From assembly GCA_040381935.1 (NCBI GenBank), contig JBEIGJ010000001.1:32895-96894 (forward strand): a stretch of 64,000 nt of DNA, in the 5' to 3' direction. The translations under genes were made by a program, and so were the position numbers. Below, piece by piece: positions 281 to 29,825 of the stretch; position 1 is the stretch's first letter; each line of letters starts with the position of its first letter. The stretch is from Acidimicrobiaceae bacterium. GTDB lineage: Bacteria; Actinomycetota; Acidimicrobiia; Acidimicrobiales; Ilumatobacteraceae. A model generated the notes under the pieces. It was not told the DNA's origin and did no database searches. It saw nothing but the letters and a program-made list of their open reading frames with translations.

Positions 281-2554
281 ATGCAAGAACTTCTGACGTT
301 CACCATCATCGGCCTATCGACTGGAGCGATCTATGCGGTCGTAGCCAGCGGTCTGGTGGTGACCTACACGACGTCAGGAATCTTCAACCTTGCCCATGGA
401 GCCACCGGCATGTTGGCGGCATTCACCTACTGGCAACTTCGTTTCGACTGGGGACTTCCCGCCCCTTTGGCGTTGATCATCACCTTGTTCATCTTGTGTC
501 CGATCTTCGGCATTCTCACCGAGCGCATCGTCATGCGTGGTCTGCAAGGTACGACTGAGGTTGTCAAACTCTCGGTAACAGTTGCCTTGTTCGCCTTCAT
601 GGTCGGCTTGGCCAACTGGATCTGGCCGAGCGATGCCAGTCGAAAGGCTTTTCTGCGCTTCTTCGATGGCAATATCGTCTCTCTCGGTGGAGTCAACGTC
701 AGTTGGCACAAGATCATCACGTTTGGATGCGCCGTTCTCGTGGCCGTCTTTTTGCGTCTCGTACTCTTTCGCACCCGTATGGGCGTGGCCATGCGTGCTG
801 TTGTCGACGATCGCAACCTGACTGAACTGAACGGTGCACGACCAGACCATGTCGCCATGTTCGCCTGGGCAGTGAGCGCTTGTTTAGCGGGTTTGGCTGG
901 CATTTTGCTGGCTGGTGAACAGCAGTTGAATATCGAGCCCCTGGTGTTGTTGGTGATCAATGCGTACGCAGCGGCGATCATCGGTCGCCTCAAGAACTTG
1001 CCGCTCACCTTCTTGGGAGCTGCGTTGCTCGGATTACTCGACGCCTACTACCTCATGCTCTCTGACGAATCATGGTTCCCGAAGACGTTCTTCGGATTTG
1101 GTCTGTCCGGTCTGCGGGCCTCGATTCCCACCATCGTGCTGTTCATAGCGTTGATCCTCCGTCCTCAAACTCGGCTCCGTACCGGGACAGTGCGATTCCG
1201 CGAAGAGAATCGCGTTCCTGAGTGGACCACGTCACTTCTTGGCGCTGCGAGCCTGATCATCATCACCATTGGAATTTCCGGAATGTTGACTCGTTCCAAC
1301 ACCCTTTTGCTCCTCAACGCCTTCACCTTTGCTATCGCTGCTCTATCACTCGTCCCGCTCACGGGATACGCCGGCCAAATGTCTCTTGCTCCATTGACCT
1401 TCACCGGGCTCGGAGCCATCGCCATGTCAAAACTTCCCGGTGATGGCAATCTGCTTTCCCTCTTGGCGGCCATCATCATCGTGGCGGTCATCGGCGCCAT
1501 CGTCGCATTGCCCGCCTTACGACTATCGGGCATCTACTTGGCACTTTCGACGGCAGCCTTTGCCGTACTCGTCACCAAGTTGGTCTTCAATCAGCGACAA
1601 ACTTTTCAGACCGGCAATATTTCCGTTCCGGTACTCGATTTGCCATTCATCACTATCCAATCACCCCGCGGACGGCTGATTCTGGCCGCATCAGCCTTCG
1701 CTCTGTTGGGCTTGGGTGTCGTTGCCCTCCGACGCAGCCGAATCGGACGCCAACTCATCGCTCTCAAGGACTCGCCGGCCGCTGCGGCCACTTTGGGTAT
1801 GAGCTTGACCCGAGCCAAATTGGTGGCCTTCGCAGTCTCCGCCGGTATCGCCGCGTGCGCCGGTGCCTTGGCCGGAGACAAGGTCAGCCCTCAGCAATAC
1901 GACTTCATGCAAAGCCTTCCCCTGGTTTTGTTGACAGTTGTCGGTGGAGTGGGAACAGTTGGCGGAGCACTTTTTGGCGGATTCCTGCTTGGAGGCAACT
2001 CGGTTCTGGCGGGCATCGTTCCCACCGTCAAGAACCTCACCAAAGTGGGACCCGGAGTCATCGGCGTCACACTTGGCCGCAATCCCAACGGGGCAGCCTC
2101 GCAAACCGCCGACAATTTCCGCACATTGCAACGCCGTTGGAATCTTTTGGCCATTACCGGGGCCGGGGCCGTCGGGATCTGGGCCTTGAATGCCGTTGGA
2201 GCCATCTCGCGCTGGTCTTTTTTCATCGCCGGCGTCTTTTGGTTCTTGGCAGTGACCCCCAATCTTGTTGCCATGACATCCAGTTCCGCCCGACGCCGAT
2301 TGATCGCCATCGTGTATCTCGGTCTGGGCCTGGCGCTGGCAGCTGCCGTGGATTGGAGTACCACTCTCGATGCCACCGGCAAACGCCTGATCGCCATGGC
2401 TTTCCTCATTGCGGTCTTCGGCTTGGGAGCCCAGCGCACCTTGGAATCAACACCGCGCTTACTTCACTCCTCGCCGGATCTGGCCGGTCTGAGCGAACCC
2501 TTCAGCGACGAGGAGATTGCCCGTGCTGAGAGTGGATTAGGGGTGGTGCTCTGA
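281..2554 (+). CDS. Branched-chain amino acid (Liv/HAAT-type) ABC transporter permease, fused LivH-like + LivM-like, with an extra C-terminal membrane extension
   Basis: 757-aa very hydrophobic ORF with many predicted TM segments. AGGAA lies about 10 nt upstream of the ATG. The stop overlaps the start of the LivG-like ATPase gene (TGATG at 2552-2556). Its length equals two Liv permease components plus about 120 further residues containing additional hydrophobic segments. Confidence 0.85.
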   Translation: MQELLTFTIIGLSTGAIYAVVASGLVVTYTTSGIFNLAHGATGMLAAFTYWQLRFDWGLPAPLALIITLFILCPIFGILTERIVMRGLQGTTEVVKLSVTVALFAFMVGLANWIWPSDASRKAFLRFFDGNIVSLGGVNVSWHKIITFGCAVLVAVFLRLVLFRTRMGVAMRAVVDDRNLTELNGARPDHVAMFAWAVSACLAGLAGILLAGEQQLNIEPLVLLVINAYAAAIIGRLKNLPLTFLGAALLGLLDAYYLMLSDESWFPKTFFGFGLSGLRASIPTIVLFIALILRPQTRLRTGTVRFREENRVPEWTTSLLGAASLIIITIGISGMLTRSNTLLLLNAFTFAIAALSLVPLTGYAGQMSLAPLTFTGLGAIAMSKLPGDGNLLSLLAAIIIVAVIGAIVALPALRLSGIYLALSTAAFAVLVTKLVFNQRQTFQTGNISVPVLDLPFITIQSPRGRLILAASAFALLGLGVVALRRSRIGRQLIALKDSPAAAATLGMSLTRAKLVAFAVSAGIAACAGALAGDKVSPQQYDFMQSLPLVLLTVVGGVGTVGGALFGGFLLGGNSVLAGIVPTVKNLTKVGPGVIGVTLGRNPNGAASQTADNFRTLQRRWNLLAITGAGAVGIWALNAVGAISRWSFFIAGVFWFLAVTPNLVAMTSSSARRRLIAIVYLGLGLALAAAVDWSTTLDATGKRLIAMAFLIAVFGLGAQRTLESTPRLLHSSPDLAGLSEPFSDEEIARAESGLGVVL

Positions 2555-3261
2555 TGGCACTCCTGGAAACTCACGCCGTCATGGTTCGCTTCGGAGGGGT
2601 GATGGCCCTCGGCGGTGTCGACATCGTGGTGCCAGCAAGTCAGGTCACCGGACTCATTGGACCCAACGGTGCAGGCAAGACGACATTGTTCAATGTCATC
2701 AGCGGGATCCAAACTCCAACATCGGGATCGATCTCTATCGATGCTGCTGATGTCACCCGAGTCGCCCCACACCGACGAGCGCGATTGGGTTTAGCTCGGA
2801 CTTTTCAGCGACTCGAGCTTTTTGGATCACTCTCGGTGCGCGACAACGTGCGCGTTGCCGCTGAGTTGGCTCGGGTCCCCGATGTGAGTCACTGGGTAGA
2901 CGTGACTCTGTCTCGCGTCGGCCTCAGTGAACTTGCCGATCAAACAGCTGGTGATCTCCCGACAGGTTCAGCTCGGTTGGTCGAAATAGCGCGAGCGTTG
3001 GCGACAAAACCTCGCCTTCTGCTTCTCGACGAACCAGCATCGGGTCTCGATGAATCAGAAACGGAGCACCTTGGCTCCCTTTTGCGCACTCTCACGGCTG
3101 AAGGACTCGGCATCCTATTGGTGGAGCACGATGTGGGTCTGGTGATGCGGGTGTGTGATTCGATTTACGTCTTGGATTTGGGTCTGATCATTGCCCATGG
3201 CACGCCCGATGAAATCAAACACGATCCTCTCGTGCTCTCGGCATATTTGGGGGCCTCATGA
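2554..3261 (+). CDS. ABC transporter ATP-binding protein, LivG-like
   Basis: Walker A GPNGAGKTT, Walker B LLLLDEPASGL, H-loop LVEHDV. The signature region reads LPTGSAR (non-canonical). Its 1-nt overlap with the permease gene and 4-nt overlap (ATGA) with the next ATPase gene link it to both. Confidence 0.9.
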   Translation: MALLETHAVMVRFGGVMALGGVDIVVPASQVTGLIGPNGAGKTTLFNVISGIQTPTSGSISIDAADVTRVAPHRRARLGLARTFQRLELFGSLSVRDNVRVAAELARVPDVSHWVDVTLSRVGLSELADQTAGDLPTGSARLVEIARALATKPRLLLLDEPASGLDESETEHLGSLLRTLTAEGLGILLVEHDVGLVMRVCDSIYVLDLGLIIAHGTPDEIKHDPLVLSAYLGAS

Positions 3262-3962
3262 CCCAGCCCATTTTGGAACTGCGCAACATCCATGCGGCCT
3301 ACGGCACGATCGAAGTGCTCCACGGCATCGATCTGAAAGTGCAAACCGGAGAAGTTGTGGCCCTGCTCGGACCGAACGGCGCTGGGAAGAGCACCACGAT
3401 CAAAGTGATCTGCGGACTCATCAAACCCACTGCGGGACACGTTCTCGTTGCTGGTCGCAACGTCGCTGGTGCCTCGGCCCACACCTTGGCCCGAGCTGGC
3501 CTGTGCACCATTCCCGAGGGTCGTGGTGTCTTCCCCAACCTCACCGTGCGGGAGAACCTGCTGATGGCCACCTACAGCGGACGCCGTCTGAGTGATATCG
3601 AAGAACAGACCTTCAGCCGCTTCCCACGTCTGTCGGAACGTCGACACCAAGTGGCTGGAACCTTGTCGGGTGGAGAACAGCAAATGTTGTCACTCTCGCG
3701 TGCGTTGGCAACGGATCCAGTTGTTCTTCTCCTGGACGAACTATCGATGGGACTTGCCCCCATCGTGGTCGCCGAGTTGTACGAACAAGTTGCAGCGATC
3801 GCTGCTGAGGGTGTCTCGGTACTCGTTGTCGAACAATTCGCGCGCACCGTTCTCGGCATTGCCGATCAAGCCGTACTCGTGGCCCAAGGAAGAGTTCAAG
3901 TCGCCGGGCCCGCACATGAGATCGGTGAAGATGTCTTGGCCGGCGCGTATCTGGGTCGATAG
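3258..3962 (+). CDS. ABC transporter ATP-binding protein, LivF-like
   Basis: Walker A GPNGAGKST, signature LSGGEQQML, Walker B LLLDELSMGLAP, VVEQ H-loop region. Confidence 0.9.
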   Translation: MTQPILELRNIHAAYGTIEVLHGIDLKVQTGEVVALLGPNGAGKSTTIKVICGLIKPTAGHVLVAGRNVAGASAHTLARAGLCTIPEGRGVFPNLTVRENLLMATYSGRRLSDIEEQTFSRFPRLSERRHQVAGTLSGGEQQMLSLSRALATDPVVLLLDELSMGLAPIVVAELYEQVAAIAAEGVSVLVVEQFARTVLGIADQAVLVAQGRVQVAGPAHEIGEDVLAGAYLGR

Positions 3963-4017
3963 CCAAGTATGAACAGCACATATTCCATCATCAACTGCAC
4001 CTGAACGGATAGATCCC

Positions 4018-4386
4018 ATGAACGAAGACCGAATCCAAGCTTTCACTGAAGAAATCGCCACCATGAAGTTGCGCGGTGCCCGAGCCGACCGCGAGCGGAT
4101 CCTGCTGATCCTTGGTGTGGTCGGTCTCGTGGCTGGCGTTGGAATGGCCGTCTTTGGTGGATTTCAAGCCAGTGGTACTGGCGATACGGGGGACCAAATT
4201 GCCTTCTTGGCCACCGGAACTCTGATTGGACTGGCGCTGGTTATTGCTGGCACTGCCATCTTCATCCGATATTCGTTGGCTCGCTTCCTGCGTTTTTGGT
4301 TGGTCCGCTTGGTCCATGAACATCGCACCGAGACCGATCGCGTCATCGCCCAGTTGCATGAGATCGAAAAGAAACTCGGCAATTAG
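4018..4386 (+). CDS. Hypothetical small membrane protein with two predicted TM helices
   Basis: 122-aa ORF. Amphipathic N-terminus, two hydrophobic stretches (ILLILGVVGLVAGVGMAVFGGF and LATGTLIGLALVIAGTAIFI), charged C-terminal helix. No family recognised. Confidence 0.5.
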   Translation: MNEDRIQAFTEEIATMKLRGARADRERILLILGVVGLVAGVGMAVFGGFQASGTGDTGDQIAFLATGTLIGLALVIAGTAIFIRYSLARFLRFWLVRLVHEHRTETDRVIAQLHEIEKKLGN

Positions 4387-4418
4387 GCCACTGAACTGTT
4401 CTCCAACTCTCTGATTGG

Positions 4419-4439
4419 ACCCTCCCCAACGGTGAGGGT
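4419..4439 (+). terminator. Weak hairpin between the small membrane protein gene and etfA
   Basis: ACCCTC-N9-GAGGGT followed by only TT. There is no proper U-tract, so it may not terminate transcription. Confidence 0.2.
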
Positions 4440-4469
4440 TTCCAGCAACAGGCGTAATCTGTCCAGTGC

Positions 4470-5447
4470 ATGATTGCTGTCGTATTGGTTCGCTCGGGCC
4501 AGGTGCCTGCCGGTGCTGAGGAGGCCGTCTCCGAAGCTGGTGGAGATCTCCTCCTGGTCGGTACGGCAACCAATGAGGCAGTACCCGAACTTCGAGCCGC
4601 GACCCGAGTGTGGACCTTGGAAATCGAGTCCCCTTCGGGTTTTTCGTTCGCCGATAGTGCCCGTTCAATTGGCCTGGCCCTGGAAAGCATCGGTCGTCAT
4701 GACGACACCGTGCTTCTACCCGGTAGTCCAGATGGGCGGGATCTGGCTCCGCATCTGGCGCGTCTGCTCGATCGACCCTTCTTTGCTGGAGCGGTGGCAA
4801 TCGATGAATCAATGGTCGGCATCAGCCGTGATGGCGGTCTGCAGATCGCCGAATTTCCACTAACCAGCCCGGTCGTGGCCACCATCCAGGTCGGCAGCCG
4901 TGGTCCGGAAATCGCTGGAACGCCTCCTGTGGTCACCTCATTGGTACTGAACAATCACTCTGAAAGTGTGCCTACTGGCCACGACGGCACAACGCAAAAC
5001 GGCGTGCTGTCGCTATCGGTTCTACCCCCCGATGCCGCCACCATGGACCTCTCCGAAGCCCCGCGCATCATTGGAGGTGGTGCAGGCTTACGAACTCCCG
5101 AGGCATTCCCCGTTCTCGAACAGATCGCCACCGCTCTCGATGCATCCATGGGAGTAACACGAGTCATCACCGACCGTGCGTGGGCCTCCCATGATCGACA
5201 GATCGGAACTACGGGTGTCATCGTCAACCCTCGTTTGTACTTGTCGTTCGGAATCAGCGGTGCAGTGCAACACACCAGTGGGCTCGGTCAGCCAGACCAC
5301 ATCATCAGCGTGAATACCGACCCACACTGTCCGATGATGCAGATGTCGGATTTGGCCATAGTCGCCGATGCCAATCAAGTACTCGACGAATTGGCCACTC
5401 TGCTCGACATCACGTCGCCATCGCTATCGAGTGAACGCGCCTCATGA
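4470..5447 (+). CDS. etfA: Electron transfer flavoprotein alpha subunit (EtfA/FixB-like)
   Basis: The C-terminal FAD domain reads ...RIIGGGAGL...GVTRVITDRAWASHDRQIGTTGVIVNPRLYLSFGISGAVQHTSGL...IISVNTDPHCPMM..., the ETF-alpha signature region. The stop overlaps the fixC start (ATGA at 5444-5447). Confidence 0.9.
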   Translation: MIAVVLVRSGQVPAGAEEAVSEAGGDLLLVGTATNEAVPELRAATRVWTLEIESPSGFSFADSARSIGLALESIGRHDDTVLLPGSPDGRDLAPHLARLLDRPFFAGAVAIDESMVGISRDGGLQIAEFPLTSPVVATIQVGSRGPEIAGTPPVVTSLVLNNHSESVPTGHDGTTQNGVLSLSVLPPDAATMDLSEAPRIIGGGAGLRTPEAFPVLEQIATALDASMGVTRVITDRAWASHDRQIGTTGVIVNPRLYLSFGISGAVQHTSGLGQPDHIISVNTDPHCPMMQMSDLAIVADANQVLDELATLLDITSPSLSSERAS

Positions 5448-6787
5448 CCACCCAACGAATAACCATCGAAGCTTCTCCCCTCGGCCAACGCGACGCCGAT
5501 GTCATTGTTGTTGGCGCCGGACCGGCCGGTTCGTGCGCCGCGATCGCTGCAGCTCGCAGTGGTCGTCGAGTAATCCTTCTTGAACGCGGTCCCTTTCCGG
5601 GATCGAAGAATATGTACGGCGGCGTGGTGTACCCGCGCATTCTCGACGAACTCGTTCCCGAGTGGTGGAAAACAGCACCGATCCAACGCTGGGTCGTACG
5701 CCGCTCGACCATGTTGCTCTCTGAAACTGGTGCTCTCAATATCGATTACCGCAGCCAGTCGTGGGCTGAGCCTCCCTATAACGGAGCGACGGCATACCGG
5801 CCAGATTTCGATCACTGGTTGGCACAGTGCGCTGTCGATGCCGGAGCCGAATTGATCTGTGCCACCACTGCGACGTCGCTGCTCTATGACCAACAGGGTC
5901 ATGTCGTTGGAGTTCGCACTGATCGACCCGATGGCGATCTCACCGCCGATCTGGTCATTGCTTGTGATGGGGTCAATAGCTTTCTGGCCAAACAAGCTGG
6001 CCTGTATCACGCCACTGATGCCTCCAACTTCACATTGGGAGTGAAAGAGACCTTGTCACTACCACGTGAGGTCATCGAGAACCGGTTCGGGATCCGTGAT
6101 AACCATGGCGTCGACATCGAGATCTTGGGTGGAACATCCGGGGTCAACGGCGGCGGATTCATTTACACCAACCTTGACACCGTTGCCCTTGGAGTCGTGC
6201 TCAAACTTCCCAAACTTGCTTCCCAAACCAAACGTCCAGAAGAGATCATTGCTGCCCTCAAAGAGCACCCCGCGATCAAACCCCTGATCGAGGGTGCCGA
6301 AATCCTGGAGTTCTCAGCCCACCTCATTCCCGAGGCCGGACTCGACATGATGCCCAAAATGGTGGCCGATGGACTACTCATCGCCGGAGATGCGGCTGCA
6401 CTGTGTCTCGCGGCCGGCATTTGGCTGGAGGGCGTCAATTTTGCCATGGCCAGCGGTATGTACGCCGGAGAAGTCGCTGCCACGTGTTCTCGGGATGGGT
6501 CGACATCCCGCAAGTCACTTGCTCGTTACGTGGACCGTCTGGAAGGGTCGTTCGTTCTTCAGGATCACCGCAAGTTGCGCAAGATCCCCAACTTGGTTCT
6601 CTCGGATCGCGTTCAGCACCGCTATCCGCAATTCGCCACCGCCGTGGTGGAAAGAATGTTCCGGGTCGACAATCCTCACCCCAAGCCTGGACTGCGTCGC
6701 ATCGTCCGTGAGGAGCGACGTCGGGCTGGCATATCCTGGCGGGAACTCCTGCGCGATGGTTGGACGGGGATGAAGGGATTCGGATGA
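5444..6787 (+). CDS. fixC: FAD-dependent oxidoreductase FixC (ETF-quinone oxidoreductase-like)
   Basis: N-terminal dinucleotide fold VIVVGAGPAGSCAAIAAARSGRRVILLERG. Its 447-aa length, position between ETF genes and the fixX gene immediately downstream fit FixC. Confidence 0.85.
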   Translation: MTTQRITIEASPLGQRDADVIVVGAGPAGSCAAIAAARSGRRVILLERGPFPGSKNMYGGVVYPRILDELVPEWWKTAPIQRWVVRRSTMLLSETGALNIDYRSQSWAEPPYNGATAYRPDFDHWLAQCAVDAGAELICATTATSLLYDQQGHVVGVRTDRPDGDLTADLVIACDGVNSFLAKQAGLYHATDASNFTLGVKETLSLPREVIENRFGIRDNHGVDIEILGGTSGVNGGGFIYTNLDTVALGVVLKLPKLASQTKRPEEIIAALKEHPAIKPLIEGAEILEFSAHLIPEAGLDMMPKMVADGLLIAGDAAALCLAAGIWLEGVNFAMASGMYAGEVAATCSRDGSTSRKSLARYVDRLEGSFVLQDHRKLRKIPNLVLSDRVQHRYPQFATAVVERMFRVDNPHPKPGLRRIVREERRRAGISWRELLRDGWTGMKGFG

Positions 6788-7137
6788 TGAACACAACGTC
6801 AGCGACCTCACAGCCACCCACGACAACGGCGCGCATCGAATCCGATTCATCGTGGAGAGGAATTCCCTTCGAGGAACGAATCGGCACCGCCGAGTTTCGG
6901 ATTCATGAGCGCGCTCACATCACCGTCAACGGAGATTCGTGTCGCGGCTGTACCACCCGCGAGTGCGTAGTCGCCTGTCCCGCCAACCTCTTTGTTCCCA
7001 CCAGTGATGGGGGCATCTTGTTCAATTATGAAAATTGCTTCGAATGCGGCACCTGCTACATGGTCTGCAACCGCGAGGGTGCTATTACCTGGACCTATCC
7101 CGAAGGCGGATTCGGCATCGTCTTCCATCGGACATGA
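6784..7137 (+). CDS. fixX: Ferredoxin-like protein FixX
   Basis: Cys motifs CRGCTTRECVVACPANLF and FECGTCYMVC, ending ...ITWTYPEGGFGIVFHRT as in FixX. I chose the ATG at 6784, which overlaps the fixC stop (ATGA) and follows GAAGGGA. The ORF track begins at an upstream TTG (6760). Confidence 0.85.
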   Translation: MMNTTSATSQPPTTTARIESDSSWRGIPFEERIGTAEFRIHERAHITVNGDSCRGCTTRECVVACPANLFVPTSDGGILFNYENCFECGTCYMVCNREGAITWTYPEGGFGIVFHRT

Positions 7138-7177
7138 ACCCCTCGTTTTCTTTGGCGAATGACTGGGATGGCCCACG

Positions 7178-7996
7178 ATGACCATCGCCGTCTGTCTCAA
7201 ATGGGCGCTGGTGGGAAATGGCGATGAACGTTACGCCGAGCTCTCCTATGCTGACCAAGCCGCATTGGAATTTGCATTGCTGACCGGAGCGCACTTTGGC
7301 CAGCCGGTGCGCGCCGTGACCGCCGGCCCGGTCCAAGCCGACAAAATTCTTCGTCAGGCGCTCGCGGTTGGCGTGCATGATGCGCATCGGATCGAACTCG
7401 ACTCGGATTCGTCGAGTTCCCTCGTTGCCCGCAGTCTTGCTCCTTACGTTGCTGACTGTCAGTTGATTTGGTGTGGGGATTATTCCAGCGACCGGGGTTC
7501 AGGTTCCGTCCCCGCCTTTTTGGCCGCTGAGTTGGATATCGACCAAGCGCTGGGACTGATCAGCGTTGGGATTCCATCGAATACCGATGAACCTCTCCAG
7601 GTACGCCGTCGCCTCGATGGAGGGCGGCGCGAACTGCTAGCAGTGCGCGGACCAGCGGTACTTTCGGTCGAAGGTTCTGCAGCCCGCCTTCGACGAGCAT
7701 CTTTGCGAGCCACGATGGCTGTTGCTGACACTGCCATCACTGCTCGCCCATCGGCTGAGTCGCTCCGCAATCGCGGCGACATCGGGATTGCACCAACCCT
7801 TCGGCCTTTTCGCCCTCGACCACGGGTCATAGAAGCACCCCGGGGCGACAGCGCTCTGGACCGAGTGCGCCAGGTCACCAACCTTGCCCAAGGATCAAGT
7901 GACAAAGGTCGGAGCGAACTGGTCGAACTCGAACCCCAAGAGGCAGCAGCCCGCATTCTTGCCGCTCTTCGACACTGGAATTACCTCGACTCGTGA
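7178..7996 (+). CDS. etfB: Electron transfer flavoprotein beta subunit (EtfB/FixA-like)
   Basis: MTIAVCLKW...YADQAALEFAL...VTAGPVQADKILRQALAVGV...LIWCGDYSSDRGSGSVPAFLAAELD matches the ETF-beta layout. The stop overlaps the mftE start (GTGA at 7993-7996). Confidence 0.85.
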   Translation: MTIAVCLKWALVGNGDERYAELSYADQAALEFALLTGAHFGQPVRAVTAGPVQADKILRQALAVGVHDAHRIELDSDSSSSLVARSLAPYVADCQLIWCGDYSSDRGSGSVPAFLAAELDIDQALGLISVGIPSNTDEPLQVRRRLDGGRRELLAVRGPAVLSVEGSAARLRRASLRATMAVADTAITARPSAESLRNRGDIGIAPTLRPFRPRPRVIEAPRGDSALDRVRQVTNLAQGSSDKGRSELVELEPQEAAARILAALRHWNYLDS

Positions 7997-8670
7997 CATC
8001 TCACAGCCAGCCTGCCCCCATCGATTTCGAGGGTGCACCAATTGTCGTGATTCCAGTCGGCTCATGGGAACAGCACGGCCCGCACCTCCCCTTCGATACC
8101 GATACTCGCATCGCTGAAGCGCTGGTCGACGATGTCATCCAAAAATTGCCACAACTTCGCCGCGGTCCAACAGTGACAGTTGGCGCCAGTGGCGAACATG
8201 CTGGATTCTCCGGCACTTTGTCGATCGGAACCGAGACCACGGCACAAGTCATGATCGAAATCGCCCGCTCTGCTATCTGGAGCAGTGGAGTCGTTTTTGT
8301 CAATGGACATGGAGGGAATCTCGACGCTGTGAACATCGCTCGCCGTTGTCTGCGCGCTGAAGGTCGACGCGTCTTGTTTTGGTCCCCCTCTTCTGATGAT
8401 CAATACGACACCCATGCCGGACACATCGAAACTTCAGTGATGATGACGCTCGCTCCTGAAACCGTTCTTACTGATCGTCTCCAACCTGGCACTCGCCTTC
8501 GGATCTCCGAAAATCTGGAGCACCTACGTGTGCGGGGAGTCATCGGTGTCAGTCCCAACGGCATTCTCGGCGATCCGCGTACAGCCAATGCCGAAGACGG
8601 CCGCCGAATTCTCTCCAGTTGGTCCGAATCTTTACAACTATCTCTCGAGCAATGGCTGCACGAGTCGTGA
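7993..8670 (+). CDS. mftE: Creatininase-family peptidase, mycofactocin precursor peptidase MftE-like
   Basis: VIPVGSWEQHGPHLPFDTDT, GASGEHAGFSGTLSIG, VNGHGGN and HAGHIETS are creatininase/MftE metal-binding blocks as I remember them. A glycosyltransferase with an MftF-like N-terminus follows directly. Confidence 0.8.
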   Translation: MTSHSQPAPIDFEGAPIVVIPVGSWEQHGPHLPFDTDTRIAEALVDDVIQKLPQLRRGPTVTVGASGEHAGFSGTLSIGTETTAQVMIEIARSAIWSSGVVFVNGHGGNLDAVNIARRCLRAEGRRVLFWSPSSDDQYDTHAGHIETSVMMTLAPETVLTDRLQPGTRLRISENLEHLRVRGVIGVSPNGILGDPRTANAEDGRRILSSWSESLQLSLEQWLHES

Positions 8671-8689
8671 AGACGCGAGTCATGAACAC

Positions 8690-10144
8690 ATGACTGGCGA
8701 ACGGATTTCTTCGAGTGCACGTCGAGGTTTCACCACCGATTCTCACTGGTGGCGTCATCGAGCTTCGACGGGTGACACGGTCATCGCCGGTTCACCGTTG
8801 CGGCTCTTTCGATTCGCTCCCGGAGCGCGCCCACTGCTGGCCACCCTTGAGTCTCAACAGTTCGTCGATCTCGAGGATCTACCTCCTGGAAGTGAAGTGG
8901 TTCTCGATCGCTTGATCGAGGCCGATGCCATTCATCCCTTTTTCGCTGCTGATGACCAGCCATCCGTTGTGATTTCCGATCTCACTGTCGTCATACCAAC
9001 CAAAGACACCGACTTATCCACCCTGGTTCGTCTCGTGGATTGTCTTCCTCCGGCACGGCGGATCATCATTGTCGATGACGGATCAGCGATGCCGGTCAGT
9101 GACATCTCCTCGCGGCACGGCGATCGAGTCATTGTCCATCGGATACCAACATCGCGTGGTCCTGCTGCGGCCCGTAACGTCGGAGCTGCCCTCGCTGAAT
9201 CTTCGGTGATTTGCTTCATCGACTCCGATATCGAACTCTCTAGTACAGCTCAACAGAGCACGTTCTGGTTTCCGCTCCTCCATCATTTCGATGATTCACG
9301 CGTCGGACTCATTGCTCCGCGCGTCCAGTCAACGGATGGTTCATCAGTACTCGATCGCTATGAGAAAACTGACTCCCCGCTTGATATGGGTTCACAGCCC
9401 GCTCGTGTTCATCCGCGAGGTCGTCTCTCCTACGTCCCGAGTGCATTGATGCTGATCCGCACCGATGTATTGCGTCGACAGGGTGGTTTCGATGAGACCC
9501 TGCGTTACGGCGAGGACGTGGACTTGGTGTGGCGTTTGATCGATAGCGGCATCGTCTGTCGCTACGAACCGCGGGTGACAGTGCGTCATCGACCTCGGGT
9601 CACGTGGTCTGAACTCGGCCGCCAGCGTTTTCTCTACGGCACATCGGCAGCCCGCTTGGAGGCTCGGCACCCTGGTTATCTTGCACCACTTCGTCTTCAA
9701 TCCTGGACTGCATTGGCATGGTGGACCGGTCTTTGCGGTCTTCCGGCAATAGCCTCAATGATCACTGCTGCATCCGTCGTACGTCTGCACCGTTCAATTG
9801 CACCGGCGGCCCACGATGACTCATGTGGATCCGAGATCATCACGGCGCGCTTATCGATACGCGGCAACCTGCTGGCGGGACAAGCAGTGGCCCAAGCCAT
9901 CAGTCGGACCTGGTGGCCGATTGTTGCCGCCCTCAGTCTCAGATCCTCACGAACCCGTCGGCTCTGGCTGCTTTCGATCCTGGTACCGAATATTTGGCGT
10001 TGGCGACAGCGACAGTCACAACTCGATCCGGCGCGCTACATCGCCGCCAAAGCGTTCGATGACCTCTCCTATGGCGCAGGCGTGTGGTCTGGAGTCATCA
10101 AGACTCGACGCTTCGGTGCCCTGCGACCGCGCCTCATGGAATGA
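8690..10144 (+). CDS. mftF: Mycofactocin system glycosyltransferase MftF-like (GT2 domain plus C-terminal membrane region)
   Basis: N-terminal GSPLRLFRFAPGARPLL box, GT2 core (VVIPTKDT, IIIVDDGS, CFIDSDIEL, GGFDE..RYGEDVDL), then hydrophobic C-terminal segments. The start is set at the first ATG after the mftE stop; the ORF track start at 8528 would overlap mftE by 143 nt. Confidence 0.8.
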   Translation: MTGERISSSARRGFTTDSHWWRHRASTGDTVIAGSPLRLFRFAPGARPLLATLESQQFVDLEDLPPGSEVVLDRLIEADAIHPFFAADDQPSVVISDLTVVIPTKDTDLSTLVRLVDCLPPARRIIIVDDGSAMPVSDISSRHGDRVIVHRIPTSRGPAAARNVGAALAESSVICFIDSDIELSSTAQQSTFWFPLLHHFDDSRVGLIAPRVQSTDGSSVLDRYEKTDSPLDMGSQPARVHPRGRLSYVPSALMLIRTDVLRRQGGFDETLRYGEDVDLVWRLIDSGIVCRYEPRVTVRHRPRVTWSELGRQRFLYGTSAARLEARHPGYLAPLRLQSWTALAWWTGLCGLPAIASMITAASVVRLHRSIAPAAHDDSCGSEIITARLSIRGNLLAGQAVAQAISRTWWPIVAALSLRSSRTRRLWLLSILVPNIWRWRQRQSQLDPARYIAAKAFDDLSYGAGVWSGVIKTRRFGALRPRLME

Positions 10145-10186
10145 CCCACAACGATCCGAACTGATCCGAGACTTACATCAGCCCTC

Positions 10187-10705
10187 TCAATGACCGACGG
10201 TGCTCTGCACTCCTGGTCGACGCGTGATGTCCTGACAGGCTTCACAGACTGATGCCGGGACAACTCCCACTTTCATCAGGGCGGCAAAAATTGTGCACCC
10301 CAGACAAAAACCGACGAAGGCTTCCAAACTCGCTGCCAGCAACAATCCGACCATCAACACGACTGCAACCGATTCAGCCCCCACCCCCCAGGCCAGCAAT
10401 GCTCCCAGTGAAAACAGAGAGCCGATGAATTGAGCAAACCTCTTCGGCGGTCCTGGAACGATACGTTCTGGTCGTCCGAGTCGCGGAGTGATGACCCGAG
10501 TGGCCAACTGACCCAAAGGGCTCAGGGTGGGACCGGATACAACTCGGGCCACGAAGCCGTACGCCAGGGGAAGTAACAGCCACCACTGCCTCCAGGCCAA
10601 AAAGACCAGAACCTGCACCACGACCCCCGTGGCCACGACTCGAGCCGAAATCTCATTGACCGTGGCCGGAAAACCGAAAAGACGATGCGAGGTTTGCTGA
10701 GACAT
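10187..10705 (-). CDS. DUF4395-like membrane protein
   Basis: 172-aa protein with 4 hydrophobic segments and a C-terminal Cys cluster (FCLGCTIF...VCEACQD). The family call is from memory of the DUF4395 layout. Confidence 0.6.
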   Translation of the reverse strand: MSQQTSHRLFGFPATVNEISARVVATGVVVQVLVFLAWRQWWLLLPLAYGFVARVVSGPTLSPLGQLATRVITPRLGRPERIVPGPPKRFAQFIGSLFSLGALLAWGVGAESVAVVLMVGLLLAASLEAFVGFCLGCTIFAALMKVGVVPASVCEACQDITRRPGVQSTVGH

Positions 10706-10789
10706 GGCTTCAGCCTACGGGAGAATTCCCGACCTAACAAGTCGTATTTAGGATCGGCTCTTTTGGGTGATGTCGGTAGCGTCGGGACG

Positions 10790-11770
10790 GTGACCCTGAC
10801 TTTGACCGTCAACGCCGCGGTCTGGAATCGCCACGTCGACTCCACTGCTGCCGACACACCTGGTCTCGTCCCAGTGGTCAAAGGCAACGGTTACGGTTTC
10901 GGCCGTTCTTGGTTGGCCAATCGAGCAGCAACGCTGGCCCCCATCGCCGCCGTGGGTTCGATTTTTGAAGTGGCCGATATTCCCTCGAACTATTCAGCGG
11001 TGGTTCTTAGTCCAGCGCTGAAGTTCCCTTTCCCTCTTCGGGACAACGTGATCCTCACCGTGGGCTCCTTGGCCCATGTCCACGCCGCCCAGCGTGCGCA
11101 TCAGCCACAAATCAGCCGCCAACGCCATGTCATCATCAAGTTGCGCTCCTCGATGTACCGCTACGGCGTGGAACCCACCCAGGCCAAAGAACTGATCGAT
11201 GCCTGTCACCAGGCTGGCTTCAGTGTCGATGGCCTCTCCATTCATCCTCCGATCCATGGTTCGAGTACCGAACATCGACAAGAAATTGAGAACCTCCTCG
11301 CCGCAGCCGAAGCGCACGGTGTCAACTCTTCGCTGCCGGTGTGGGTGAGTCATGTCGATCTCGATGATTACAGACTTCTCCGACAGGAATTTGCTGATCG
11401 ATCCTGGCATCTCCGACTCGGCACATCGCTCTGGCATGGCGACAAGTCGATGTTCACTTTGCAAGCCGATGTTGTCGACGTGGTTGCAGTCAGTGCCGGA
11501 GCGACTGTCGGATACCGCGGAAGTTCAGTTGATCGTGATGGCTACCTGCTCATGATCGGTTGTGGGTCGGCTCATGGTGTGACCCCCCTGTCTGATGGGC
11601 GAAGCCCTTTTCATTTTCGACGTCGACGTCTGGAACTGATCGAGGCCCCGCACATGCACACCTCAATGTGTTTTGTCCCTCATGGCGACCAGTGCCCTCA
11701 AGTCGGCGACCTCATTGACGTTCAGCGTCCACTCACCCAGACCGCAGTGGATGACATCCACTGGGTATGA
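10790..11770 (+). CDS. Alanine racemase-fold (fold type III) PLP-dependent enzyme
   Basis: VPVVKGNGYGFG resembles the racemase PLP-lysine block (V-K-A-N-A-Y-G-H-G). The length fits an N-terminal barrel plus C-terminal beta domain. The start is uncertain: GTG at 10790 was chosen; the ORF track starts at 10685, which would overlap the divergent gene. Confidence 0.65.
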   Translation: MTLTLTVNAAVWNRHVDSTAADTPGLVPVVKGNGYGFGRSWLANRAATLAPIAAVGSIFEVADIPSNYSAVVLSPALKFPFPLRDNVILTVGSLAHVHAAQRAHQPQISRQRHVIIKLRSSMYRYGVEPTQAKELIDACHQAGFSVDGLSIHPPIHGSSTEHRQEIENLLAAAEAHGVNSSLPVWVSHVDLDDYRLLRQEFADRSWHLRLGTSLWHGDKSMFTLQADVVDVVAVSAGATVGYRGSSVDRDGYLLMIGCGSAHGVTPLSDGRSPFHFRRRRLELIEAPHMHTSMCFVPHGDQCPQVGDLIDVQRPLTQTAVDDIHWV

Positions 11771-11841
11771 GCGATGACATCCACTGGGTATGAGAGATGA
11801 CATCTATTGGGTGTGAGAGTTGACATCCACTGGGTATGAGA
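11750..11841. repeat. Four tandem copies of a 23-bp unit (GATGACATCCACTGGGTATGAGN) spanning a gene junction
   Basis: Units at 11750-11772, 11773-11795, 11796-11818 (3 substitutions) and 11819-11841 (1 substitution). Unit 1 encodes the last residues and stop of the upstream gene (DDIHWV*). The ATG of the downstream gene (11843) sits where a fifth unit would begin (GATGAGCAAC). Confidence 0.95.
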
Positions 11842-11842
11842 G

Positions 11843-13024
11843 ATGAGCAACACGACCTTTGATCATCCACCCAGCGGGTTGACATCGCGGGGACGACCAC
11901 GCCACATTGGTCTCGATGTCACGCGCGCCGTGGCCCTGATCGGCGTCGTGGTCATGAACTACCACGGAATGATCAACTTTCGAGGGCCAGCAGTACGGTC
12001 AGACGGACTCATCGAAAGAATTTTCGACATCTCAACGGGAGTTCTATCCACCCGATTTGCGGCCACCTTTGTGGTGGTCGCAGGAATTGCGGTCACGTTC
12101 TTGACCCACCACACCAAGTCAGGCAATCCTCAATTCTCGCTCAACAACGACCGAACGCGTCTTGTTCGCCGCGGACTGATTCTCTTGGCCACCGGCTATT
12201 TCCTGAATGAGGTTTGGCCAGGAACCATCATTTTTTATTACGGGGCATACTTTCTTTGCGCCGCTGTACTCTTTCGCTGGCGTACCAGCCTGCTTTCAGC
12301 AACAGCGGCACTAGTCGCTGCCGGAGGTGTTGGCATCGCGATATGGCGTCGTCTTCGTTTTCAAAATGGCGACTCGACGACATGGATGAATCCATCGGAT
12401 CTCGACTCCCTCGGCAATTTCCTGCTCAGAGTTTTCATTGGGTATACCCATCCCGTCCTTCCGTGGCTTGCCTTTTTCATTCTTGGCATGATTGTCGGCC
12501 GCTGGTGGAACCTCATTGTTGCTCGCTATCGCATTGTCATCGCAGTATCGATGCTGATCGTGGTCGCCTCGTATCTTTTGGCCACCATGGCCCGTCTTTT
12601 TTCCTGGCGTGACCATGCCGTGGTCTACGCAGTGACTTCTCTGCGACCTGACGAACGAGGCTTGCTGTACGTCTCGAGTACTGCCGGGATAGCAATCATC
12701 GCCATTCTCGTCATCAATCAGGTGGCCGAAACATTTCGCCATGTTTCAGTGATCACTCATCTCCAACGAGCCGGACAGATGACCTTGACCTTGTATCTCA
12801 TGCACGTCTTTTATTTCTACCTCGTCGTCGACTGGAGTGGTCTCGTGACCGGCACCGGTCTGACCACGGCTCTTCTCCTTTCGGGAAGCTTTTGGCTGGG
12901 AGCAATTTCGTGGGCCTCATGGTGGCACCATCGGTTGGGTCAGGGACCAGCCGAGCGTCTTTATCGTTGGCTCGGTGGCTGGAACCCCGACCGATCCGGT
13001 TCTGCTCTCACGGCTCGCGATTGA
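11843..13024 (+). CDS. DUF418/DUF1624-type (YeiB-like) integral membrane protein, possible acyltransferase
   Basis: RHIGLDVTRAVALIGVVVMNYHG N-terminal box followed by about 10 hydrophobic segments. The family call is by resemblance only. Confidence 0.6.
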   Translation: MSNTTFDHPPSGLTSRGRPRHIGLDVTRAVALIGVVVMNYHGMINFRGPAVRSDGLIERIFDISTGVLSTRFAATFVVVAGIAVTFLTHHTKSGNPQFSLNNDRTRLVRRGLILLATGYFLNEVWPGTIIFYYGAYFLCAAVLFRWRTSLLSATAALVAAGGVGIAIWRRLRFQNGDSTTWMNPSDLDSLGNFLLRVFIGYTHPVLPWLAFFILGMIVGRWWNLIVARYRIVIAVSMLIVVASYLLATMARLFSWRDHAVVYAVTSLRPDERGLLYVSSTAGIAIIAILVINQVAETFRHVSVITHLQRAGQMTLTLYLMHVFYFYLVVDWSGLVTGTGLTTALLLSGSFWLGAISWASWWHHRLGQGPAERLYRWLGGWNPDRSGSALTARD

Positions 13025-13961
13025 GTCGACGCCACCCCACTGCTGCGGCCCCGATCAATGGACTTTGATCCCCTAAACGAGCGGGAACGATGCGTGCTCC
13101 CCGGGAAAAGGGCAATCGGCAGTGATGATCCAGGGTCAATTGGGCAGCATGAAAAAAAGTCGGTCCGTATCCAAGGGCCACTGATCCGCCCACGACCGCC
13201 AATCGCAAATCGAAGAAATTGCACATACTGGAGACCGCCAATCCCACCATATGACCGGTCCTTTGCATGATGGCATAAGAGGGTTCAGCGGCCGACCGCC
13301 CCGAGATTGCCGCGATTGCCGTTCCCGATGCTTCGGCTTCGAGGCAGCCACGGGCTCCACATCCGCACCGGTTCCCTTGGGGGTTCACAATGACATGGCC
13401 AATATGGCCAGCATTGCCTGATGCCCCATCGAGTAACTGGCCGTCGATGACGATTCCCCCACCTACCCCGGTACTCACCACCATGCCAATGAAGTTGGTT
13501 TCTCCGCGTGCCGCCCCTAACCAACCTTCCGCCAGAGCAAAGGCTTTGGCATCAATGTCTCCGTACACCGGAACCTGGACGATTTCAGCAACTTTGGATC
13601 GCAGAGGAAATCCGTTCCAGGCGGGGATATTGAGAGGGGCAATGGATTCGCAGTCCGCCTCGATAGGGCCGGCCGATCCGATTCCCGTCACCACGATGTG
13701 ACCCCGGTGTCTCCCGCCGGCGCGTTCCTTTTGTCGAATGATCATCTGCCGCAGACCATCGAAGAGATCGGCGGCATTCTTGTCCACATCGGTGCGGATG
13801 ATTTCCCGATCAATCAACTCACCGCGCCGGGTGACCAGTCCGACAGCCAACTTCGTTCCACCGATGTCGATGGCCAGAGCTAATTCGCGCAATTGAGCCG
13901 GGACTACCTCAGCCTCGGTCAACGGCAACGTGAGACGAGTTTCATCGTTTGGCGGCATCAC
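13008..13961 (-). CDS. ROK family sugar kinase
   Basis: ATP-binding N-terminus LAIDIGGTKLAVGLV and ROK zinc motif GHIGH...CGCGARGCLEAEASG. Confidence 0.9.
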   Translation of the reverse strand: MMPPNDETRLTLPLTEAEVVPAQLRELALAIDIGGTKLAVGLVTRRGELIDREIIRTDVDKNAADLFDGLRQMIIRQKERAGGRHRGHIVVTGIGSAGPIEADCESIAPLNIPAWNGFPLRSKVAEIVQVPVYGDIDAKAFALAEGWLGAARGETNFIGMVVSTGVGGGIVIDGQLLDGASGNAGHIGHVIVNPQGNRCGCGARGCLEAEASGTAIAAISGRSAAEPSYAIMQRTGHMVGLAVSSMCNFFDLRLAVVGGSVALGYGPTFFHAAQLTLDHHCRLPFSRGARIVPARLGDQSPLIGAAAVGWRRLNREP

Positions 13962-13983
13962 TTGGGCACTTCATTCGAATCCT

Positions 13984-14958
13984 TCAATCGGCCACCCGAC
14001 GAGCATCTTCAATCAAATTGATCTGATAGAGAACTTCATCGAGAGCATCAGCAGCGCTAATAGTGGAATAACGGGGTGGATTTGCTGGGGTACAACACGC
14101 TGGTACCGGAGCGAGCATCGTCCATGGACGTGGATGGCAAAATTGGACCACGCTGTAGCGCTCTTGATCGAAGCCGGGCGCAGCAATGACTCGATGCCAC
14201 CCAACAGGAAGTACTCCGTTGGTGAGACGCTCGAGCATGATCCCCGTATTGATGATGACTTTTCCCTGAGGTGGCACGGCATCGACCCATGCTCCATCTA
14301 CTTCCACTTGAAGCCCTGGTGCCGTCGCTCGTGGCAGAGCGGTGATGAGATTGATATCGCCGTGCGCACCCGCCCATATGTGACCGCCCTGGGGGGCATC
14401 CTTCATTGATGGATAGCGGATCGCTCGCGTCAGAGTCGGTCCATCACTGACCATGTCATCAAAGAACGTTTCGTGACAGCCGATACCAATGGCGATGATT
14501 CGCAAGAATCGCCGCTGGAGATCGGCGATGGCATCATGGAATTCGTAAAGGACTTTGGAGAGTCCGGGAACTGCGCTGTCCGGAAGAAGCTGGTCGGGAT
14601 AGGAACCGGGAAAGCGACGTCGTAAGGGATGCCCCGACGGAATCGGCGTCGACCAATTCAGCATCTCTTTCCAGTCGGGCTTATCGCTACTGGCAGCGGT
14701 TTCCACCAAGAGCCCGGTATAACCCGTTTGTCCATGGGCACCTGCAGCCACGAATTGTTGTTTGGTCTGCTGATCAAGACCGAAGAACTCAGCCAACATT
14801 CCATAGGCGGTATCAAGCAAATCCTCTGAGAGATCGCTCGAGGTGTAAACGAACCCTGTGGCCAGACTACGACGGACTCCGTCAACCACTGCGGCCCGTG
14901 CCCGTTGATCGCCCTTTTCGAATGCCAGTAGGTCGACGTCCAAAATCGAATCAGCCAT
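13984..14958 (-). CDS. 2-oxoglutarate/Fe(II)-dependent oxygenase (isopenicillin N synthase / ACC oxidase superfamily)
   Basis: DIOX_N-like N-terminus (VDLLAFEKGDQRARAAVVDGVRRSLATGFVY) and an HxD...H facial triad (GAHGDINLITAL ... GWHRV). Confidence 0.85.
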   Translation of the reverse strand: MADSILDVDLLAFEKGDQRARAAVVDGVRRSLATGFVYTSSDLSEDLLDTAYGMLAEFFGLDQQTKQQFVAAGAHGQTGYTGLLVETAASSDKPDWKEMLNWSTPIPSGHPLRRRFPGSYPDQLLPDSAVPGLSKVLYEFHDAIADLQRRFLRIIAIGIGCHETFFDDMVSDGPTLTRAIRYPSMKDAPQGGHIWAGAHGDINLITALPRATAPGLQVEVDGAWVDAVPPQGKVIINTGIMLERLTNGVLPVGWHRVIAAPGFDQERYSVVQFCHPRPWTMLAPVPACCTPANPPRYSTISAADALDEVLYQINLIEDARRVAD

Positions 14959-14988
14959 GACGGGAACGCTAATTGACGATCTCCTCGT

Positions 14989-16089
14989 TCAGACAAGCGC
15001 TTGCTGTAAATCAGACCAGATGTCCTCGACATTTTCGATGCCGACGCTCATTCGAATCAGTCCAGGATCTACCTGAGCGTCACCGGGATACTTCTGGCGA
15101 CGCTCCAAAGTGGTTTCCACCCCGCCGAGACTGGTCGCAGGCACGATGAGTCGCACTCGAGCGCAGACGGCATCGGCCTGAGCGGCGCCACCGCGCATAA
15201 TGAAACTCACCATCGGTCCCACTTGGCGAACCCACGACACCTCTTGGTGACTAGTCAACCGATCACGTAACTGGCGGGCGTTGTCCGATGCAGTCCGATA
15301 GCGCAAGGGCAAAGTACGCAGACCGCGCAATGCGAGAAAGGACTCCAATGCTCCTGGCGTCGACCCGATCAGAGTGCGCGCCTGGCGCAGTTCAGCCAGG
15401 ATCTTGGGGTCCTGCGTTACGGCTAGGCCGATCAGCAGATCACTGTGACCTCCGATGAATTTCGTACCCGCATGCATGACAACCGTGGCCCCATGAATCA
15501 GTGGCTGCTGAGTGACGGGCGTAGCAAAAGTGGAGTCCACCACCGTTGTCACTCCCATATCACTCGCGAGGGAACACAGACTCGCCACATCAGCTTGTTC
15601 GAGAGTGGGATTGGCTGGGGATTCCAGCCATAAGACAATGGACCGATCACTACCGGAGGCTCCGGCGGCAAGCAGCGACTGACGCACATCGTCCACGTCC
15701 AATGCATTGAGGTATCGCACGTCGATGGTGCCGCGCTCTTGCAAGGCCTCGAGTAGGGCGCGCACTCCGAGATAACTCACCGCAGGAATCAACAAGACGC
15801 GCGGTCGCAGAGCGTGGACAATGGCCGAGGCCGCGGCCATCCCACTAGCAAAGGACACACAGTCACCACCCTCCATTGCTCCAATTGCCGTTTCTAAGGC
15901 TTCCCAACTGCGGTTTCCATGGGTGCGGTTGTATTCGGGTCCGTTGCGGAAATTCGAAGCGAGGACAATTGGCTCGTTGAGCGGATCGCCGTCTTTGCTC
16001 GGCCGACCAGCAGTGACAGCAATCGTCTCCATTGCCAGGACTCGAGGTTGATCGGGGCCCCCATTGGATCGTCCTTGTTCACTGGTCAT
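14989..16089 (-). CDS. Cys/Met-metabolism PLP-dependent enzyme (cystathionine gamma-synthase/lyase family)
   Basis: PLP-lysine block HAGTKFIGGHSDLL and C-terminal LGGVETTLERR...IRMSVGIE, typical of the trans-sulfuration family. Confidence 0.88.
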   Translation of the reverse strand: MTSEQGRSNGGPDQPRVLAMETIAVTAGRPSKDGDPLNEPIVLASNFRNGPEYNRTHGNRSWEALETAIGAMEGGDCVSFASGMAAASAIVHALRPRVLLIPAVSYLGVRALLEALQERGTIDVRYLNALDVDDVRQSLLAAGASGSDRSIVLWLESPANPTLEQADVASLCSLASDMGVTTVVDSTFATPVTQQPLIHGATVVMHAGTKFIGGHSDLLIGLAVTQDPKILAELRQARTLIGSTPGALESFLALRGLRTLPLRYRTASDNARQLRDRLTSHQEVSWVRQVGPMVSFIMRGGAAQADAVCARVRLIVPATSLGGVETTLERRQKYPGDAQVDPGLIRMSVGIENVEDIWSDLQQALV

Positions 16090-17092: not shown

Positions 17093-17198
17093 GTCAGGGA
17101 GGTTATTGGTCTGGCACCTACTTCGCCGATAGAGACGACGAGTCGCTCCGATTTCTTCGTTTTCGGGCTCCCTGACCACTTTCGGCCACAATACGAGT

Positions 17199-26831: not shown

Positions 26832-26848
26832 ACCCGATTGCGCCGGAA

Positions 26849-27286: not shown

Positions 27287-27390
27287 ACTTGAGATTCAAG
27301 CACGTCTGGACGGACCGGCCCAATATCTCACACCGACTGTTGGCTCCGACGCTCCATCAGGGCCCCTAGTCGTGCACTTCCACTCTGACG

Positions 27391-29724: not shown

Positions 29725-29783
29725 GGAGTGCTCGTACTGAGTTCCCAGGTGCGCATAGGAAGTCCATTGTACGACACGGATAT

Positions 29784-29825
29784 GACATGATCACTGGAAC
29801 GCGATCACCCGGACATGATCACTGG
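29784..29825. repeat. Two 14-bp direct repeats (GACATGATCACTGG) with a 28-bp period upstream of pcrA
   Basis: Copies at 29784-29797 and 29812-29825, with a partial GATCAC between them (29803-29808). They lie 60-100 nt upstream of the pcrA start codon and just downstream of the arylsulfatase stop. Confidence 0.6.

Follow-up and report, generated by a model that had tools for sequence, protein, structure and literature searches.

A mycofactocin-associated electron transfer flavoprotein with separate FixC and FixX subunits in an Acidimicrobiia genome, a candidate link between mycofactocin and the menaquinone pool

How mycofactocin is reoxidized has been explained only recently, in mycobacteria, where the GMC-family mycofactocinol dehydrogenase MftG ties mycofactocinol oxidation to respiration (PMC11778925). 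The same study counts 311 genomes with mftC and 235 with mftG, about a quarter of the MftC genomes being without MftG. The cultured Acidimicrobiia found in its supplementary table, namely, Ilumatobacter coccineus, Iamia sp. SCSIO 61187, and two Aquihabitans strains, are all MftC positive and have no MftG (PMC11778925). Here, we describe a stretch of 64,000 nucleotides (nt) from an Acidimicrobiaceae bacterium of the Ilumatobacteraceae (assembly GCA_040381935.1, contig JBEIGJ010000001.1, positions 32,895 to 96,894), in the following called the window, where the genes for the two subunits of an electron transfer flavoprotein (ETF) and for a FixC/FixX pair directly precede the mycofactocin maturation genes mftE and mftF. 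The class Acidimicrobiia includes abundant freshwater and marine lineages. We propose that electrons from the mycofactocin system may reach the menaquinone pool, without bifurcation, through a conduit made up of the mycofactocin-associated ETF (mft-ETF) and an ETF:quinone oxidoreductase split into FixC and FixX, a reading for which we find the chances about evenly balanced.

At the level of annotation, the closest counterparts are the NCBIfam families NF038209 (mft_etfA) and TIGR04503 (mft_etfB). Like their members, EtfA and EtfB of the window exceed the family cut-offs and stand beside mycofactocin genes, whereas the window EtfB has a shortened N-terminal loop and the ETF genes lie apart from mftABC and the OYE genes. 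The four-subunit composition is shared with the bifurcating complexes EtfABCX of Thermotoga maritima (PDB ID 7KOE) and FixABCX of Azotobacter. However, the genes of the window run in the order etfA-fixC-fixX-etfB (alpha, C, X, and beta, abbreviated A-C-X-B) and not fixA-fixB-fixC-fixX, the ETF subunits are very divergent from those of EtfABCX (EtfB matches 7KOE_A at 2.4e-5), and the three motifs of the bifurcating flavin adenine dinucleotide (FAD) are missing, NADH not being the expected donor. The complex of trimethylamine dehydrogenase (TMADH) with ETF from Methylophilus methylotrophus (PDB ID 1O94) contains, with its ETF-beta (1O94_C), the PDB chain that the window EtfB matches best in sequence, the Leu of the recognition loop being conserved, and TMADH is of the same FMN/4Fe-4S/ADP-domain family as the oxidoreductase OYE_2 of related loci. 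The differences are that OYE_2 lies outside the window and that its flavin mononucleotide (FMN) domain is closer to 2-naphthoyl-CoA reductase (NCR) and FadH. With MftG, the system would have in common the role proposed here, the return of electrons to the respiratory chain, but there is no homology, and the ETF route would take three to five proteins in place of one. FixC and FixX are together the counterpart of the FAD and 4Fe-4S portions of ETF:quinone oxidoreductase (ETF-QO; PDB ID 2GMH), a function that in the window is split over two polypeptides, with two clusters in contrast to one and a menaquinone-type host to be expected.

All six genes of the system lie on the forward strand, and their junctions can be read directly from the sequence. 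The etfA gene (4470 to 5447) encodes the FixB-type large ETF subunit of 325 aa and shares an ATGA overlap at 5444 to 5447 with fixC, also named etfC (5444 to 6787), which encodes the FAD-dependent ETF:quinone oxidoreductase subunit of 447 aa. A second ATGA overlap at 6784 to 6787 leads into fixX, or etfX (6784 to 7137), for a ferredoxin-like protein of 117 aa with two [4Fe-4S] motifs. After a gap of 40 nt (7138 to 7177) follows etfB (7178 to 7996), encoding the FixA-type small ETF subunit of 272 aa, the stop codon of which overlaps the GTG start of mftE as GTGA (7993 to 7996). The mftE gene (7993 to 8670), for a creatininase-family mycofactocin peptidase of 225 aa, is separated by 19 nt (8671 to 8689) from mftF (8690 to 10144), for a mycofactocin glycosyltransferase of family 2 (GT2) with 484 aa, and the public gene call concurs with the ATG start of mftF at 8690. 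The open reading frames (ORFs) and junctions are thus exactly those of a preliminary description of this locus, and the identities that it had assigned hold as well, with EtfA, EtfB, MftE, and MftF passing NCBIfam cut-offs and FixC and FixX matching T. maritima EtfC and EtfX. The next gene, encoding a DUF4395 membrane protein (10187 to 10705; Pfam ID PF14340, 4.6e-34), is on the opposite strand and convergent with mftF, so that the co-oriented block stops at mftF. A consensus scan of positions 3800 to 10900 yielded no promoter-like sites and no excess of terminator-like sites over shuffled sequence, and no RNA families were found in the window with Rfam. We infer that the six genes, mftE and mftF included, are probably co-transcribed.

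Relatives were collected in a scan of one genome per species, which returned 80 loci. Those with a consistent taxon name are nearly all from metagenome-assembled genomes (MAGs) of Acidimicrobiia, mainly Ilumatobacteraceae. In these genomes of other species, the A-C-X-B order is found in 66/66 loci having all four ETF/Fix genes, and the order that the preliminary description had called unusual and permuted is therefore the norm for this family. The full set of six genes occurs in the window's order in 48 loci, and mftE and/or mftF follow etfB in 50 of the 55 loci with at least 3 kb of downstream sequence, an arrangement that, judging from this comparison, is not due to chance. The spacing between etfB and mftE in the relatives has a median of about 39 nt, and the GTGA overlap, considered as a conserved feature, was rejected as specific to the lineage of the window. 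Twelve loci carry an insertion of 1.2 to 2.6 kb between the two genes. In at least six loci, this insertion encodes a PQQ/BamB-like beta-propeller protein of 513 to 651 aa with a C-terminal propeller and weak matches to NCBIfam models, for example, at 13321 to 14862 of locus L036 and 13946 to 15901 of locus L061, and also in L030, L034, L065, and L066.

In the NCBIfam profile search, EtfA matches NF038209 with 336.5 bits against a cut-off of 240, and residues 1 to 312 align with profile positions 1 to 302 of 303. The Pfam ETF_alpha FAD domain spans residues 193 to 272. The FAD motifs TR231V...GISGAVQH align with those of CarE and Acidaminococcus fermentans EtfA, the FAD-binding domain being well conserved. 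EtfB passes TIGR04503 marginally, with 202.6 bits against a cut-off of 200 and an alignment beginning at profile position 24, and it is strongly divergent from the general ETF-beta model (45.7 bits, with a cut-off of 350). As expected of the mft_etfA and mft_etfB families, both subunits are encoded beside mycofactocin genes, with etfB overlapping mftE and mftF following. Among 1.84 billion representatives, EtfB has homologues in 1354 clusters (50% identity) at E < 1e-3 and in 168 such clusters at E < 1e-30, and all family members bearing a taxon name are Acidimicrobiales. The AlphaFold (AF2) model of EtfB (pLDDT of 87.5) has an ETF-beta fold, which was also found in a fold search with this model, a search that does not separate canonical from bifurcating relatives. 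In the alignment with 1O94_C, EtfB residue L176 aligns with the recognition-loop anchor Leu194, and it is part of an ARLRRAxL stretch conserved in the EtfB family, suggesting that EtfB recognizes a protein dehydrogenase by classical docking.

FixC matches T. maritima EtfC (7KOE_C) with an E value of 4e-74 over residues 18 to 420 and, more remotely, ETF-QO (7.7e-18), and its FAD motif of the GxGxxG type reads GAGPAG at residues 24 to 29. With 316 bits, it stays below the cut-offs of 466 and 610 of the NCBIfam FixC subfamily models, and by these scores it is outside the narrow E. coli-type FixC subfamilies. Its identity to the loci of the genome scan has a median of 75% and ranges from 57 to 89%. 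FixX matches T. maritima EtfX (7KOE_D) at 2.5e-14 and ETF-QO at 5e-3. It has eight Cys residues in two 4Fe-4S motifs, CRGCTTRECVVACP and CFECGTCYMVC, and a low-complexity stretch of about 30 aa at the N-terminus, and it reaches 52 bits against NF011993, below the cut-off of 166. Weak Pfam matches to ETFQO_UQ-bd and Fer4_ETF_QO were obtained for FixC/FixX. On identical contigs, the public gene predictions lack fixX and have a 93-aa ORF on the antisense strand instead (6847 to 7128, reverse). The Fe-S motifs, the 7KOE_D match, the conservation across related loci (64 to 91% identity), and the presence of only synonymous strain variants together clearly argue for fixX being a real gene. In automated annotations of such clusters, FixX will often be missing.

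To our knowledge, all biochemically characterized complexes of an ETF with FixCX or EtfCX bifurcate, and the closeness of FixC and FixX to the T. maritima bifurcating complex is in line with a bifurcating ETF at the present locus, too. Mycofactocinol would then replace NADH at the second FAD, with menaquinone receiving one electron via FixCX and ferredoxin or flavodoxin receiving the other. In group 2 bifurcating ETFs, the surroundings of the bifurcating FAD are marked by three motifs, of which RxGV and GxxSPTxV belong to the small subunit and RPxFGG belongs to the large one (PMC10734219). A motif check of EtfB for the first two and of EtfA for the third found all three absent. Furthermore, EtfA carries E128 (D in the family consensus) at the position of the bifurcation-essential Arg of CarE and A. 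fermentans EtfA, and the N-terminal loop of EtfB that would hold RxGV is shortened relative to most of the family. The sequence thus gives no support for bifurcation, and we see little chance that this ETF bifurcates.

The products of the two mycofactocin genes both score above the cut-offs of their family models. MftE reaches 239.2 bits against TIGR03964 (cut-off of 172), matches the Pfam Creatininase family at 2.4e-53, and has the metal-binding motifs EQHGPHLP and NGHGGN, and MftF reaches 369.8 bits against TIGR03965 (cut-off of 280) and contains the Pfam Glycos_transf_2 (GT2) domain. Among near-identical strain contigs, we counted synonymous and nonsynonymous differences, with 5 to 8 synonymous and no nonsynonymous differences in fixC, 1 to 3 and none in fixX, 4 to 6 and none in etfB, and 14 to 15 and 3 to 5 in mftF. 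At the strain level, this pattern shows purifying selection on fixC, fixX, etfB, and mftF, suggesting that the genes of the locus are still under selection. The mftE gene, with 4 synonymous and 4 to 5 nonsynonymous differences, is more relaxed than its neighbors, and it may be under relaxed constraint in the lineage with the split cluster described below.

Upstream of etfA, the relatives carry mycofact_OYE_2 (mycofactocin system FadH/OYE family oxidoreductase 2; TIGR03997, 950 bits in locus L026) in 48 of the 56 loci for which 3.5 kb or more of flank is available, with a gene for a DedA-family membrane protein between OYE_2 and etfA. OYE_2 is 77 to 98% identical between loci. Further upstream on the same strand, 10 to 11 of the 38 loci whose flank extends over 9 kb or more have mftA (ending in IDGMCGVY), mftB, mftC (628 bits), and OYE_1 (TIGR03996). 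The gene directly after mftC in these relatives is OYE_1 and not mftD (L026 2153 to 5709, L036 208 to 5279, and ten further loci). In the window and its closest relatives, loci L001 to L009, the place upstream of etfA is taken by a Liv/Urt-type ABC transporter and a membrane protein of 122 aa. Motif scans, tblastn, and NCBIfam scans, the latter taking in most window ORFs above about 230 aa, found none of mftA, mftB, mftC, mftD, mftG, OYE_1, and OYE_2 within the 64 kb, nor any mycofactocin-coupled short-chain dehydrogenase/reductase or alcohol dehydrogenase enzymes. There is no peptide ending in CGVY, no CxxxCxxC ORF above 150 aa, and no MftD-like motif, and tblastn with the relatives' MftB, MftC, OYE_1, and OYE_2 gave no match. 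The window, therefore, does not contain a complete mftA-F cluster. With upstream genes different from those of the relatives and no mftA/B/C/D or OYE gene within 64 kb, the locus is, by this comparison, the downstream half of an Acidimicrobiia-type mycofactocin cluster that was split in this lineage.

The breakpoint of the cluster falls at 281 to 4386 of the window, to be compared with 7186 to 9900 of L026 and 6861 to 9938 of L036, which hold OYE_2 and the DedA gene. The predicted 122-aa membrane protein (4018 to 4386, forward strand) lies directly before etfA and has no Pfam or NCBIfam match. It is confined to the window-like loci L001 to L009, with 81 to 84% identity in the more distant L007 to L009, and is probably the operon edge in this lineage and outside the system.

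TMADH is the textbook example of an enzyme passing its electrons to ETF, as captured in the 1O94 complex. A PDB sequence search places OYE_2 in one family with NCR (2.6e-74), 2,4-dienoyl-CoA reductase (1.2e-72), histamine dehydrogenase, and TMADH (1.9e-51), the two reductases being the best matches. In OYE_2, a CxxCxxxC…C cluster motif is accompanied by a single GxGxxG, and an NAD(P)H motif is missing. Over their whole length, its C-terminal domains can be aligned with those of histamine dehydrogenase and NCR, and they also align with those of TMADH, the stretch VVVVDEIGFHH facing VVVYDDDHYY of histamine dehydrogenase, whereas no alignment is obtained with the FadH NADPH domain. Because OYE_2 is directly upstream in the relatives, a protein donor is likelier than a direct oxidation of mycofactocinol by the ETF, and by analogy with the relatives, OYE_2 is a plausible protein donor to mft-ETF.

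As to the donor, the direction in which electrons flow, and the connection with mycofactocinol oxidation, we infer the following. A flavoenzyme of the mycofactocin system, for which, in the relatives, the TMADH/histamine dehydrogenase-like Fe-S flavoprotein OYE_2 is the obvious candidate, would dock on the recognition loop of EtfB and reduce the FAD of the ETF. The ETF would then hand the electrons via the two 4Fe-4S clusters of FixX and the FAD of FixC to menaquinone. As TMADH is an ETF donor and OYE_2 is TMADH-like, the chain from OYE_2 over ETF, FixX, and FixC to menaquinone appears to be the most economical reading. The more specific claim, that a chain of five proteins, OYE_2, the two mft-ETF subunits EtfA and EtfB, FixX, and FixC, replaces MftG in Acidimicrobiia, is tentative, and we regard it as possible but somewhat doubtful.

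The kinship of OYE_2 can also be read in the opposite direction, with electrons flowing from the quinol pool, or from ferredoxin, through FixCX and the ETF to OYE-type reductases and mycofactocin being a further partner. The best PDB matches of OYE_2 are reductases, as given above, and OYE_2 presumably lacks the Cys to which FMN is covalently bound in TMADH, as the stretch that we take to correspond to this position reads SAHLTNF. A model for such a flow is E. coli FixABCX, for which a reductive role in carnitine reduction has been proposed. However, electrons can normally be moved uphill from menaquinol to a low-potential reductase only by bifurcation or confurcation, and the window ETF lacks the motifs of bifurcating ETFs. 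In addition, a feed into the quinone pool is simpler for aerobic relatives, and both the freshwater acIV lineage and Ilumatobacter are aerobes. We consider the reverse flow decidedly unlikely and retain the flow from the mycofactocin system toward menaquinone as the preferred reading.

No MftD-like FMN dehydrogenase was detected by sequence motif within 10 kb on either side of the 80 loci, including 10 loci with mftC. Either mftD is encoded elsewhere, or the step forming premycofactocin differs in Acidimicrobiia, which leaves room for a minor biosynthetic alternative with OYE and ETF. Here, OYE_1, an enzyme of the amine dehydrogenase type, would replace MftD in the oxidative deamination to premycofactocin, and ETF/FixCX would take up the electrons. 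The position of OYE_1 directly after mftC agrees with such a role, as does the oxidation of C-N bonds by relatives of TMADH and histamine dehydrogenase. Yet, a respiratory conduit of four proteins would be disproportionate for one biosynthetic step, and MftD might be found elsewhere, the search having relied on a motif only. We give this alternative the slightest chance of those considered.

The preliminary description had seen no mftG at the locus, and this agrees with the results for both the window and the relatives. The GMC/MftG family gave no match among the window ORFs scanned against NCBIfam, and a motif scan found no GMC gene within 10 kb on either side of the scan loci. A match to the GMC motif turned out to be FixC itself and was rejected as a false positive of the pattern. 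The ETF/FixCX route would do in this MftG-less lineage what MftG does in mycobacteria. Since the cultured Acidimicrobiia named above have MftC without MftG, ETF/FixCX together with OYE_2 is a reasonable candidate for an alternative to MftG in this class, and a link of mycofactocin to respiration through ETF/FixCX is plausible. As had likewise been suspected, the co-occurrence is already catalogued: NCBIfam names both NF038209 and TIGR04503 "mycofactocin-associated," and homologues in NCBI MAG records of Ilumatobacteraceae and Acidimicrobiales bear the name of a mycofactocin-associated ETF. The pairing of ETF and mycofactocin is hence not new at the annotation level, and the present locus by itself adds little new fact. 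Our literature search found no publications that join mycofactocin with electron transfer flavoproteins or cite the accessions of the ETF models, and no biochemical characterization, as the preliminary description had also stated. The MftG paper contains no discussion of ETFs (PMC11778925).

If the proposed conduit is real, it would be the first ETF with the system of a peptide-derived redox cofactor (a ribosomally synthesized and posttranslationally modified peptide) as its physiological input. It would explain how the cofactor is regenerated in mycofactocin producers without MftG, in that mycofactocinol, or a substrate oxidized with mycofactocin as the cofactor, would be coupled to respiration through the ETF. 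Confirmation would furthermore widen the range of ETF clients and add a FixCX-type complex without bifurcation. The mycofactocin-associated ETF/FixCX thus offers a concrete and clonable candidate for the missing route of mycofactocin reoxidation in Acidimicrobiia.

Several points weigh against this conduit. The margin of EtfB over the TIGR04503 cut-off is 2.6 bits. Sequence does not reveal in which direction the electrons flow, and a reductive mode of action has been proposed for E. coli FixABCX. As mftA/B/C/D, OYE_1, and OYE_2 are not in the window, the donor that we propose and the pathway to the cofactor are both putative for this genome. In 5 of the 55 loci with sufficient downstream sequence, etfB is followed by neither mftE nor mftF, and the comparative evidence comes from a single bacterial class, the Acidimicrobiia, without an independent recurrence of the pairing. 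Moreover, the synteny takes in genes that seem unrelated, with an alr-like gene in 47 loci and a DUF418 gene in 42, which makes adjacency alone weak functional evidence, and the ETF-mft adjacency may come partly from shared ancestry. Much of this would also fit a general catabolic acceptor, in which ETF/FixCX takes electrons from, for example, acyl-CoA or other flavin dehydrogenases and merely lies beside mftE and mftF in a slowly rearranging block, and in the window, the ETF operon indeed persists with neither mftABC nor an OYE gene in its vicinity. The ETF subunits do not have a housekeeping profile, however, being highly divergent paralogues, as seen from the low score of EtfB against the general ETF-beta model and from its 1354 homologous clusters. 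The adjacency to mftE and mftF has also outlasted several independent upstream rearrangements and the insertion between etfB and mftE, and the curators of NCBIfam defined both ETF families by their association with mycofactocin. A general acceptor, therefore, seems unlikely to us, and we continue to prefer the conduit from mycofactocin to menaquinone.

The region after mftF in the window (10187 to 13024) holds the DUF4395 gene on the reverse strand, an alanine racemase-like pyridoxal phosphate (PLP) protein, and a DUF418 membrane protein, and the same genes are found in most related loci, with DUF4395 in the same position in 31 of them.

The window contains two separate Liv/Urt-type ABC systems with fused components (281 to 2554, 19624 to 22572, and 22569 to 24722). 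Each of the permeases (757 and 717 aa) has matches to UrtB-type as well as UrtC-type models, and in a protein of 982 aa, two ATPase domains are preceded by about 450 aa of N-terminal sequence. In the regions 14989 to 17209 and 25278 to 32296, a cystathionine gamma-lyase-like gene adjoins a gene for a D-cysteate sulfo-lyase/CuyA-like PLP enzyme, and two sulfatase-family genes follow further on. The predicted lyase and sulfatase genes suggest organosulfur scavenging by this organism.

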